NCBI GenBank assembly: GCA_035221665.1
Contig: CM069145.1
Span: 15,996,001-16,060,000 of the forward strand
Direction: 5' to 3'
Origin: Okamejei kenojei
Taxonomy: Eukaryota
DNA: 64,000 nucleotides
Positions 8,291 to 60,302 of the stretch are shown here, in pieces. Positions within the stretch are counted from its first letter, which is position 1. Each line of letters opens with the position of its first letter. The notes under the pieces are model-generated. The model did no database searches. It saw nothing but the letters and a program-made list of their open reading frames with translations, and was not told the DNA's origin. Position numbers and translations under genes: made by a program.

Positions 8291-8413
8291 TTTGTTGACA
8301 CTGACTGGAACTCTTAAAGAGGAGGCAAGCTTGTTGAGTTTGAAGCGCAGTGAGCGAGAAGTTCCGAGTCGTACGACACAGAAACAAGCCCATGAGTCCA
8401 CGCTGACCAGCTG

Positions 8414-8550
8414 CTTCTTCTTGCGTATGGCGTGCACAGCCTAAAGTTGTCGGTCAACTTGTTCTATTTGATCTATTTGTCTGTGCACGTCGGGTTGATT
8501 GCATTAGTCGAAACAGGATGGACCACGTGAAGGTTGCAATCTTACACCCC
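8414..8550 (-). mobile_element. Short non-autonomous retroposon with 5' HDV-like ribozyme (copy 1)
   Basis: Near-identical to 59445-59578; starts GGGG, ends (AAG)3; 10-bp TSD GCTGACCAGC at 8402-8411 and 8552-8561. Confidence 0.9.
8497..8550 (-). ncRNA. Minimal HDV-like ribozyme fold (one P1 mismatch)
   Basis: P1 GGGGUG(U)/(C)CAUCCU, P2 GAUUGCA/UGCAAUC, P3 ACC/GGU, L3 UUCACGU, mini P4 U-UUCG-A, J4/2 CUAA. Confidence 0.75.
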
Positions 8551-8569
8551 AGCTGACCAGCAAGCACCT

Positions 8570-58400: not shown

Positions 58401-59444
58401 TGTCCCCCAAAATATGCCATATATTTTAGAGTGCTGATCAGTATTTGATCACTTTAATCTGGTCAAAATAATCTTATTAAATGCAATGCAGTTTAAACAA
58501 TTGCTTGTAGCCAGCATGTATTCGTTGGTCAAGGAATTCTATGTTGACAATTTCAGGATGATTAATGAAAGCACCTTTTTCTCAGAATGTCAGACACTGC
58601 CTTTTTAACAACTGACCTTTCATTGGATACTAGTGAACTCATAATTCCACTTCTGCACAGTTTCTTATTAGTAGAGTTAAAATTAATACTTATGGGAATG
58701 GTGGTTAATCCTCCACACTGTAAATCTTCCACTCCTTCAAGCTTCCACAAAGAGCAAAAGCTCCAATCTTAACCGGGGCACTTTCTTTTAATAGTCTTAT
58801 TTTAAAAACTAAAACAACAGATTATTTCATCAAAGAAACAATCTGTAATATCCTGAATTAAATATAGTTCGATTATAACGCACTGCAATATTACTCTCAA
58901 TTAGGGAAAGTATCCCTGTTATTAAGCAATGCAATCTATCACAGTGGGGGTTACGAGATTATATAACATACATATATTTCTGCAATTTCGATATGTATAT
59001 CATTTTGTAAAATTCTTGAAAATGCACTAAATCGCATTTGTAATTTCCAACAAGGCACTTCCTTTGTCATTACCAGTTTTCTGCACGTAACACAGCAGGT
59101 ACAAGTTAGTGCTTTGAGGTTGCAGATGGCATTTTCTGGACGGGATTTTTTTGCACAATTCTATGAAACTAATATCTCTATGAATTATTTCTGAGTGGAA
59201 TGTGCCATTTTGTCGGTGATATGCAGCGCATTCAGAAAGTATTCTGACCCCTTCACTTTTTCCACATTTTGTGACATTACAGCCTCATTTTAAAATGGAT
59301 TAAATTCTTTTTTTTTAATCATCAATCCACACACAGTACCCCAGAACGAAGAAGCAAAAACAGGGTTTTAGAGATTTTTGCAAAGTAATTAAAAATAAAT
59401 AACTGAAATATCACGTTTACATAAATATTCCGACCCTTTGCTAT

Positions 59445-59578
59445 CTTCTTCTTGCGTGTGGCGTGCACAGCCTAAAGTTGTCGGTCAACTTGTTCTATTT
59501 GATCTTGTTTGTGCACGTCGGGTTGATTACATTAGTCGAAACAGGGTGGACCACGTGAAGGTTGCAATCTCCCACCCC
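59445..59578 (-). mobile_element. Short non-autonomous retroposon with 5' HDV-like ribozyme (copy 2), nested in the Tc1 left inverted repeat
   Basis: Near-identical to 8414-8550; 12-bp TSD ACCCTT(T/A)GCTAT at 59433-59444 and 59580-59591. Confidence 0.9.
59525..59578 (-). ncRNA. Minimal HDV-like ribozyme fold (all helices intact)
   Basis: GGGGUGG GA GAUUGCA ACC UUCACGU GGU CCACCCU G U-UUCG-A CUAA UGUAAUC: P1 with G1-U wobble, P2, P3, L3, single-pair P1.1, candidate catalytic C in J4/2. Confidence 0.85.
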
Positions 59579-59720
59579 AACCCTTAGCTATGACACTCAA
59601 AATTGAGCTGAGGTTCATCCTGTTTCCATTGATTATCCTTAAGATGTTTCTACAACTTGATTGGAGTCGTCCACCAGTGGGAAATTAAATTGATTGGGTG
59701 TCAGAGCAAAAAACCAAGCC

Positions 59721-60302
59721 ATGAAGACGAAGGAATTGTCCGTAGACCTCCGAGACAGGATTGTGTCGAGACGCAGATCAGGTGAAGGGTATAAAACAAT
59801 TTCTGCAGCATTGCAGGTCCCGAAAAGCACAGTGGCCTCCGTGATTCTTGAATGGAAGAACTTTGGAACCACCAGGACTCTTCATAGAGCCGGCCGCCTG
59901 GCCAATCAGATGTCGGGGGAGAAAGGCCTTAGTAAGGGAGGTGACCAAGAATGGTCACTCTGACAGACCACCAGAGTTCCTCCGTGGAGGTGGGGGAACC
60001 TTTCGGAAGGACAACTATATATCCACCAATCAGGCTTTTACGTTAGAGTGGCCGGACGGAAGCCACTCCTCAGTAAAAGGCACATGACAGCCTGCTTGGA
60101 GTTTGCCAAAAGGGTTGTTTTCTCTGGTGCTCTGCTCTGATGAAACCAAGATTGAACTCTTTGGCCTGAATGCCAAGCATCACATCTGGAGGAAACCAGG
60201 CACCGCTCATCACCTGGCCAATACCATACCTATGGTGAAGCATGGTGGAGGCAGCATCATGCTGTGGGGATGTTTTTCAGTGGTGGGAACTGGGAGACTA
60301 GT
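59721..60302 (+). pseudogene. Tc1 transposase pseudogene
   Basis: MKTKELSVDLRDRIVSRRRSGEGYKTISAALQVPKSTVASVI (paired-like HTH); SDETKIELFG and VKHGGGSIMLWGCFS; frameshifted, and the second D and the E of DDE are deleted. Confidence 0.93.

Follow-up and report, generated by a model that had tools for sequence, protein, structure and literature searches.

Our analysis identified a short retroposon that combines the 5′-terminal 80 nt with the 3′-terminal 44 nt of a LINE that is 3.1 kb long, has a single ORF and likely belongs to the Vingi clade. The retroposon probably spreads on the protein of this LINE after its RNA has been freed at G1, the first base of the element, by a predicted HDV-like ribozyme without the P4 helix. 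The proposal builds on the anatomy of the element, its target-site duplications abutting G1, its copy number, its subfamilies and a covarying fold at the heads of related LINEs, all of which were observed directly. An initial annotation of the window (the whole stretch of 64,000 nucleotides analysed here) had described a ribozyme-headed SINE; the non-autonomous retroposon with an HDV-like head at G1 stands, whereas the SINE status does not, the element being made of the two ends of one LINE.

Anatomy of the short element

Copy 1 spans 137 nt on the minus strand of the window (8414-8550), from G1 to the end of an (AAG)3 tail (8414-8422), with boundaries backed by other copies of the family. Its 5′-derived part (8471-8550) corresponds to nt 1-80 of the partner LINE, with 87.5% identity over 80 nt to the full-length LINE copy L130, and its 3′-derived part (8414-8457) to the last 44 nt, comprising the last ORF codons, the stop codon (8441-8443), the 3′ UTR and the tail. 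Between the two lies a 13-nt linker (8458-8470) that, upon sequence comparison, matches neither LINE end and possibly combines a local duplication with a scrap of the LINE interior. On the minus strand, the start of the copy is G-rich and its body A-rich. A 10-bp target-site duplication flanks the copy (upstream 8552-8561, downstream 8402-8411), with an extra T at 8551 before G1 and two additional bases separating the tail from the downstream duplication. Copy 2, 134 nt long and also on the minus strand (59445-59578), lies 51 kb away, is 93.5% identical to copy 1 and, as judged by flank comparison, carries a 12-bp duplication with one mismatch (upstream 59580-59591, downstream 59433-59444). 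Its empty site is present once in each of two other loci. This copy lies within a Tc1-type transposon (HTH_SB), towards its 5′ side and upstream of the start of a decayed Tc1/Sleeping Beauty-type transposase that occupies 59721-59960 of the plus strand.

The tail, the 10-bp duplication, the distant second copy and the lack of tRNA A and B boxes had all been recognised in the initial annotation; a simple pattern match likewise found no A or B box in the short element. A Pol III SINE would have a head derived from a small RNA with A and B boxes, whereas the head here is LINE-derived and has no match in Rfam. Instead, the element has the hallmarks of a bipartite, SIDE-type non-autonomous LINE: both LINE ends, no ORF, and amplification as a unit with target-site duplications. 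Judged by its sequence, it is an internally deleted LINE and not a classical SINE with a head of its own.

Copy number and the 5′ boundary

An exact, CpG-free 14-mer from the head occurs 15,863 times genome-wide, against 9 occurrences of a control, and is preserved exactly in 22 of 30 copies that had been selected with a different motif, which gives an estimate of about 21,600 copies. The genome thus holds at least 15,800 copies and probably about 20,000, bearing out the high copy number anticipated from the two copies in the window; an estimate from flank density is 50,000, with a wide range of 16,000-118,000. Complete copies make up 24 of the 30 selected with the 14-mer and differ on average by 7.0% from one majority sequence outside CpG, a figure that includes subfamily differences.

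Full-length 5′ ends had been expected to pile up at G1, and they do: the G1 region is reached by 30/30 copies picked by nt 10-23 and by 29/30 picked by nt 25-54, two samples that have one locus in common and the second of which holds a duplicated locus pair. The target-site duplications measure about 9-13 bp. A duplication scoring at least 7 abuts G1 directly in 17/25 (32 examined), 17/25 (30 examined) and 11/18 (30 examined) copies of three samples, as against 2/868 among mismatched flank pairs, and one extra base is seen in 3, 2 and 3 copies, respectively. The 7 distinct copies with an extra base have T in 6 cases, and the target base is C in 3 of them, copy 2 included; the T in those 3 is attributed to decay of the CpG formed by the target C and G1. 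Overall, the −1 base is T in 35 of 60 copies. These duplications and counts indicate that the element starts at G1 and that the T is mostly target-derived. Thus, the exactly one extra base noted at first holds for both window copies but not for the family, in which most duplications abut G1 directly; as a family rule, the extra base was rejected, being confined to a minority of duplication-scoring copies in all three samples. The predicted cut site, G1, is the 5′ boundary of the short element.

Loose ends accumulate at G1/−1 and at the tail in four public runs, each from a different organism. At least 7 organisms hold 75-92% of the sampled short-element words. No RNA data set appeared among the listed sources of the element; two runs that we guessed to be RNA contain it in contigs, which are silent on ends and expression. 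One short element with its own duplication is inserted in a copy of its partner LINE (L139:298-434).

The partner LINE

A tail search with the short element excluded recovered sequences that share only the last 44 nt with it and then read into the end of an ORF. Counted with a 22-mer, the LINE has 467 3′ ends, and 62 candidates were obtained for its 5′ region. The long element sharing both ends, which the initial annotation had proposed to look for, is a LINE of about 3.1 kb with a single ORF. It is represented by the full-length L130 (3,043 nt), which starts at G1 and has a duplication, and by L127 (3.09 kb), with broken ORF pieces in order. Relative to this LINE, the short element retains nt 1-80 and the last 44 nt, among them the stop codon, with the 13-nt linker in between. 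The head of the autonomous LINE is P4-less, like that of the short element, and its copies start at G1.

Pfam searches of the LINE ORF pieces detected RVT_1 (E 9e-29), a weak endonuclease match and a weak C-terminal zinc-binding match; RNase H was absent from these pieces and from the 120 relatives listed. The latter are mostly about 1,000 aa long on 3.2-kb contigs, and the closest among the protein matches listed, P0001, is intact, with 1,019 aa and 75% identity. No relatives were found in viral contigs, and two loci (L243, L244) offered no long ORF for the RNase H scan. None of 20 LINE loci has an intact ORF, the longest being 414 aa, so that the family is likely inactive now.

We first took this LINE, from its motifs, to be a Vingi; the tool-based anchor is the match of related heads. 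In a reverse transcriptase (RT) tree, the window LINE and the ribozyme-headed relatives with RT coverage form one clade (100/99) on a long branch, with the reservations that three rows with less than 180 aa coverage were left out, that the long CR1-like outgroups are unreliable and that no named Vingi protein is among the references. This 100/99 clade includes L220 and L307, whose heads match, by eye, the printed 5′ end of Vingi-2_Gav. Vingi elements are compact and single-ORF and, unlike Ingi, lack RNase H (PMC13708176). The partner LINE likewise has a compact single ORF with APE and RT and no RNase H. It most likely belongs to the Vingi clade; the initial annotation had pointed to the Ingi/Vingi group, and the missing RNase H speaks for Vingi rather than Ingi. 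A long open CR1-like RT frame beside a truncated LINE 3′ end (5′ flank of L055) served as a tree outgroup only.

LINE copies often lose the first 7-15 nt, and some of these ends are inversion junctions (L097-L126). Among LINE copies starting at nt 10 or earlier, the 5′ strand of P1 is missing in 5/12, compared with 0/30 short elements (Fisher p 0.001). Several LINE copies (L145, L146, L113, L086, L089, L062) resemble products of twin priming in that their head is inverted relative to the 3′ part. Independent short derivatives (L039, L047, L056, L057) share the two ends and differ in their internal junctions. Upstream of a related LINE, a long inverted repeat with nearly perfect arms (L233:100-246) is probably a MITE and gives spurious miRNA matches in Rfam.

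The predicted ribozyme fold

The predicted HDV-like ribozyme occupies the first 54 nt of the element (8497-8550, minus strand, in copy 1), as supported by a structural descriptor and covariation. In copy 1, P1 pairs nt 1-7 with 30-36, including a G1-U36 wobble, P2 pairs nt 10-16 with 48-54 (GAUUGCA/UGCAAUC), and P3 pairs nt 17-19 with 27-29 (ACC/GGU) around L3 (nt 20-26, UUCACGU); P1.1 is formed by C22-G37, with U:U as its second pair, and the predicted catalytic C44 lies at 8507 within J4/2 (CUAA). Helix P4 is absent from the head: five bases stand in its place, and only 7 nt lead from P1 to C44. The P1, P2, P3 and P1.1 elements form the nested double pseudoknot of the HDV-like topology in the correct order. 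The descriptor, which called for P1 of 6-7 bp, P2 of 5-8 bp, P3, L3 with C-G-Y, a G after P1 and C-N-R-A before the second P2 strand, matched both window copies and one weak antisense site within copy 1, and had no match in shuffled sequence (1.26 Mb from the window, 272 kb from the loci); the fold exceeds chance. This confirms the 54-nt double pseudoknot with reduced P4 proposed from sequence, with the correction that P1 of copy 1 is damaged, having one mismatch and 6/7 pairs; in copy 2 (59525-59578, minus strand), which also matches the descriptor, the fold is intact and P1 is fully paired. Across complete copies selected by the nt 10-23 pattern, the key positions are nearly constant (G1 22/24, U20 24/24, G25 23/24, C44 23/24, A46 24/24, A47 24/24), and 17 of 30 copies still pass the descriptor. 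A head with an apparent long hairpin inserted in the L3 region was seen by eye in L179 (about 424-585).

Searching with HDV-like and CPEB3 models had been suggested in the initial annotation; when the window and copy L003 were scanned against Rfam, no ribozyme family was returned for the short-element head, which did not reach the gathering threshold of the HDV and CPEB3 families. Energy folding of the short element missed the pseudoknot, and the folding energies of whole copies did not surpass those of shuffles (z 0.40, −0.90). The 3′ 81 nt of copy 1 have a folding z of −2.84, and those of two other copies −3.94 and −0.61; a predicted stem at 8431-8489 (minus strand) joins a 5′-derived arm (8481-8489) to a 3′-derived arm (8431-8439) around a 6-bp hairpin (8444-8460). 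A stem between the 5′- and 3′-derived halves is also present in a second short family (L273-L276). As a general trait of distant LINEs, such 5′-3′ pairing found no support: 4 of 6 loci were testable, none exceeded shuffles, and the arm is mutated in L130.

Conservation and covariation

Of 75 metagenome loci of relatives, 24 include the ORF start, and 11 of these 24 have an HDV-like fold directly upstream of the ORF on the coding strand; 2 more do so by eye or in part, and 11, some with short or truncated flanks or from outside the clade, have none. When 12 heads were aligned with plain MAFFT, 89.6% of the cells were paired, compared with 67.7% in shuffles and 42-55% in slid controls, and there are 43 double-sided changes, compared with 14.3 in shuffles (0/500). 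A structure-guided parse of 15 heads of related elements, chosen for pairing and hence biased towards structure, gives 87/90, 89/90 and 45/45 paired positions in P1, P2 and P3, a level reached in none of 5,000 partner shuffles. A longer P4 region is present in 9/9 metagenome heads and 3/4 sister-family heads parsed. Covariation is strong, with compensatory change across homologues as in HDV-like ribozymes. The covariation of P1, P2 and P3 that had been sought among copies is weak there, because the copies are too alike, but strong across related elements. The positions that distinguish the subfamilies are nt 8, which is unpaired, nt 32, where U-A becomes U-G, and nt 45, the variable position of J4/2; all three changes are fold-neutral, and they are too few to demonstrate selection. 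The window copies have the LINE-like A32/U45 state, which is in the minority (A32 in 2/24).

Proposed mode of spread and alternatives

We propose that a longer transcript, arising by host read-through or from a start near the element, would fold into the 54-nt double pseudoknot, and that the predicted cleavage 5′ of G1 would release the element from it. The LINE protein would then bind the 3′ hairpin and AAG tail, nick DNA and reverse-transcribe up to G1; the frequent T at −1 could reflect a nicking preference or the non-templated addition of an A at the cDNA end. The ribozyme would remain within the element after such a cut, so that each full-length copy would retain its own 5′-end maker. By analogy with L1Tc, NARTc and R2 (PMC4035085, PMC6765202), we infer both the cleavage and the copying by the LINE from the AAG tail. 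In vitro cleavage has been shown for natural P4-less HDV-like ribozymes (PMC10879173), and cleavage can be fast when the second pair of P1.1 is U:U (PMC13635239), so that, by comparison, neither feature need kill the activity of the predicted ribozyme. Well-folded heads of trypanosome SIDER elements can, however, be inactive (PMC4035085).

Alternatively, the head could serve chiefly as an internal promoter, like Pr77 in L1Tc, with the ribozyme trimming the 5′ end or playing a secondary role and read-through being dispensable. We regard this as possible but doubtful. The L1Tc/ingi head is both promoter and ribozyme (PMC4035085, PMC8256844), and the short element retains 26 nt of LINE 5′ sequence past the ribozyme; yet the primary sequence of the heads is highly variable while their pairing is kept, a pattern more in keeping with an RNA fold than with a DNA motif, and the element boundary coincides exactly with the predicted cut site. 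It is unlikely that the head is vestigial, that is, catalytically dead after the loss of P4 and kept only to bind the LINE protein or to protect the 5′ end from decay. The longer P4 regions of the metagenome and most sister-family heads and the missing Rfam match would fit such decay, but the autonomous LINE shares the P4-less head and its copies start at G1, the second short family, with different helix sequences, is P4-less as well and keeps the J4/2 cytosine, and P4-less ribozymes of natural origin are active (PMC10879173). An ordinary Pol III SINE, or passively truncated LINE copies with a fold formed by chance, is highly improbable, since the SINE-like shortness, AAG tail and target-site duplications are set against the lack of A and B boxes, the LINE origin of both ends, a junction that recurs together with subfamily changes missing from the LINE, and 0 descriptor matches in 1.5 Mb of shuffled sequence, the two-ended anatomy and covariation already contradicting it. 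Release by the predicted ribozyme followed by copying on the LINE protein is the reading we retain.

Relation to known elements

Ribozyme-headed deletion derivatives are already known in the form of NARTc, RIME and R2 SIDEs. NARTc, RIME, NARTco and SIDER, the trypanosomatid derivatives of L1Tc/ingi with the Pr77 ribozyme, are likewise short, non-autonomous deletion derivatives whose HDV-like 5′ end cuts just upstream of nt 1 (PMC4035085), whereas here the partner is of the Vingi type without RNase H, the host genome is that of an animal, the copies number about 20,000, and the predicted head is P4-less and 54 nt long, compared with 77-126 nt (PMC4035085). The R2 SIDEs of Drosophila also arose by internal deletion that retained the 5′ ribozyme and 3′ end of the parent, but R2 is site-specific in 28S rDNA, whereas the element described here is dispersed and its parent is an APE-type LINE (PMC3414825). 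Vingi LINEs and their bipartite derivatives (the derivatives of Vingi-1_EE, as well as Vingi-2_Gav and SINE2-1_AMi; PMC5786205) share with our elements the single ORF with APE and RT, the lack of RNase H, a length of about 3.1 kb and two-ended short derivatives. Minimal HDV-like and theta ribozymes resemble the predicted head in having a double pseudoknot with a J4/2 cytosine and no P4, but nearly 99% of them come from Caudoviricetes, many beside tRNA genes (PMC10879173), whereas ours is at the 5′ end of a eukaryotic retroposon. In place of the phage context and the G1 at a tRNA 3′ end that characterise theta ribozymes, variable target DNA lies upstream in 92 copies.

In the accessible text of the literature searched on Vingi, the origin of CPEB3, HDV-like SINEs and sharks, nothing described this family, a ribozyme in Vingi, a derivation of CPEB3 from Vingi or a P4-less ribozyme in an animal retroposon; Repbase, Dfam and patents, which lay outside the search, may cover part of this. 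A 2026 preprint surveying ribozymes does not mention Ingi, SINEs or sharks.

If the proposal is correct, a self-cleaving ribozyme would release the RNA of Vingi elements, as in other clades, and this would bear on Vingi-based gene-writing systems that retain the native 5′ UTR (PMC13708176). P4-less HDV-like ribozymes, so far tied to gut phages, would gain a eukaryotic role at very high copy number, and host transcripts would contain thousands of potential cut sites.

Sister families and the CPEB3 ribozyme

The short element has the same L3 loop, G1-U pair and G-U step following P1 as the Rfam consensus of the mammalian CPEB3 ribozyme (RF00622; PMC8233481), but the short-element head does not score with RF00622, and the CPEB3 ribozyme has P4 and is single-copy (PMC8233481). 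The same paper reports that the CPEB3 ribozyme was not found outside mammals. Heads of sister elements come much closer. That of L220 scores 55.6 bits with RF00622 (cut-off 35) and, over the first 38 positions, equals the model consensus at 35, and that of L252 agrees, by our own count, at 54 of 67 consensus positions and has two compensated P2 pairs. An RF00622 search of G000, the same genome, placed 30 of 59 scored candidates above the cut-off (best 66.8 bits), compared with 0/14 control genomes. At least 3 further families of CPEB3-like heads are present in G000 (L252-L272, L307), some with a P4 stem close to that of CPEB3 (L253, L254, L258). One of these, L307, is a 3.1-kb sister LINE that begins exactly with the CPEB3-like head; its duplication abuts G1, and its RT groups with that of L220 (SH-aLRT 92). 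Two other CPEB3-like heads (L308, L309) have no RT match within 4.5 kb. The printed 5′ end of Vingi-2_Gav agrees by eye with 38 of 40 consensus positions and the last 14 of 14 (PMC5786205 supplement), and SINE2-1_AMi also has the P4 stem in common (PMC5786205).

Only six positions are invariant in the HDV-like fold (PMC8256844), so that convergence is an unlikely source of the match between CPEB3 and Vingi heads, and traces of Vingi are reported in the human genome (PMC5753468). These resemblances in sequence suggest that the CPEB3 ribozyme is a domesticated Vingi head; the direction from Vingi to CPEB3 is the one we infer. We lean towards a joint reading in which HDV-like ribozymes would be general 5′-end makers of Vingi elements, the 54-nt P4-less version of this family would be active in tens of thousands of copies, and the CPEB3 ribozyme would be a domesticated Vingi 5′ end. 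The sister heads supply the missing outgroup for the CPEB3 ribozyme, making its origin testable. The second short family (L273-L276, e.g., G000:C31:24532819), about 190-200 nt long, combines a P4-less head of different helix sequence with an AAG tail, a duplication abutting G1 and RF00622 scores of 38.5-39.8 bits, above the cut-off.
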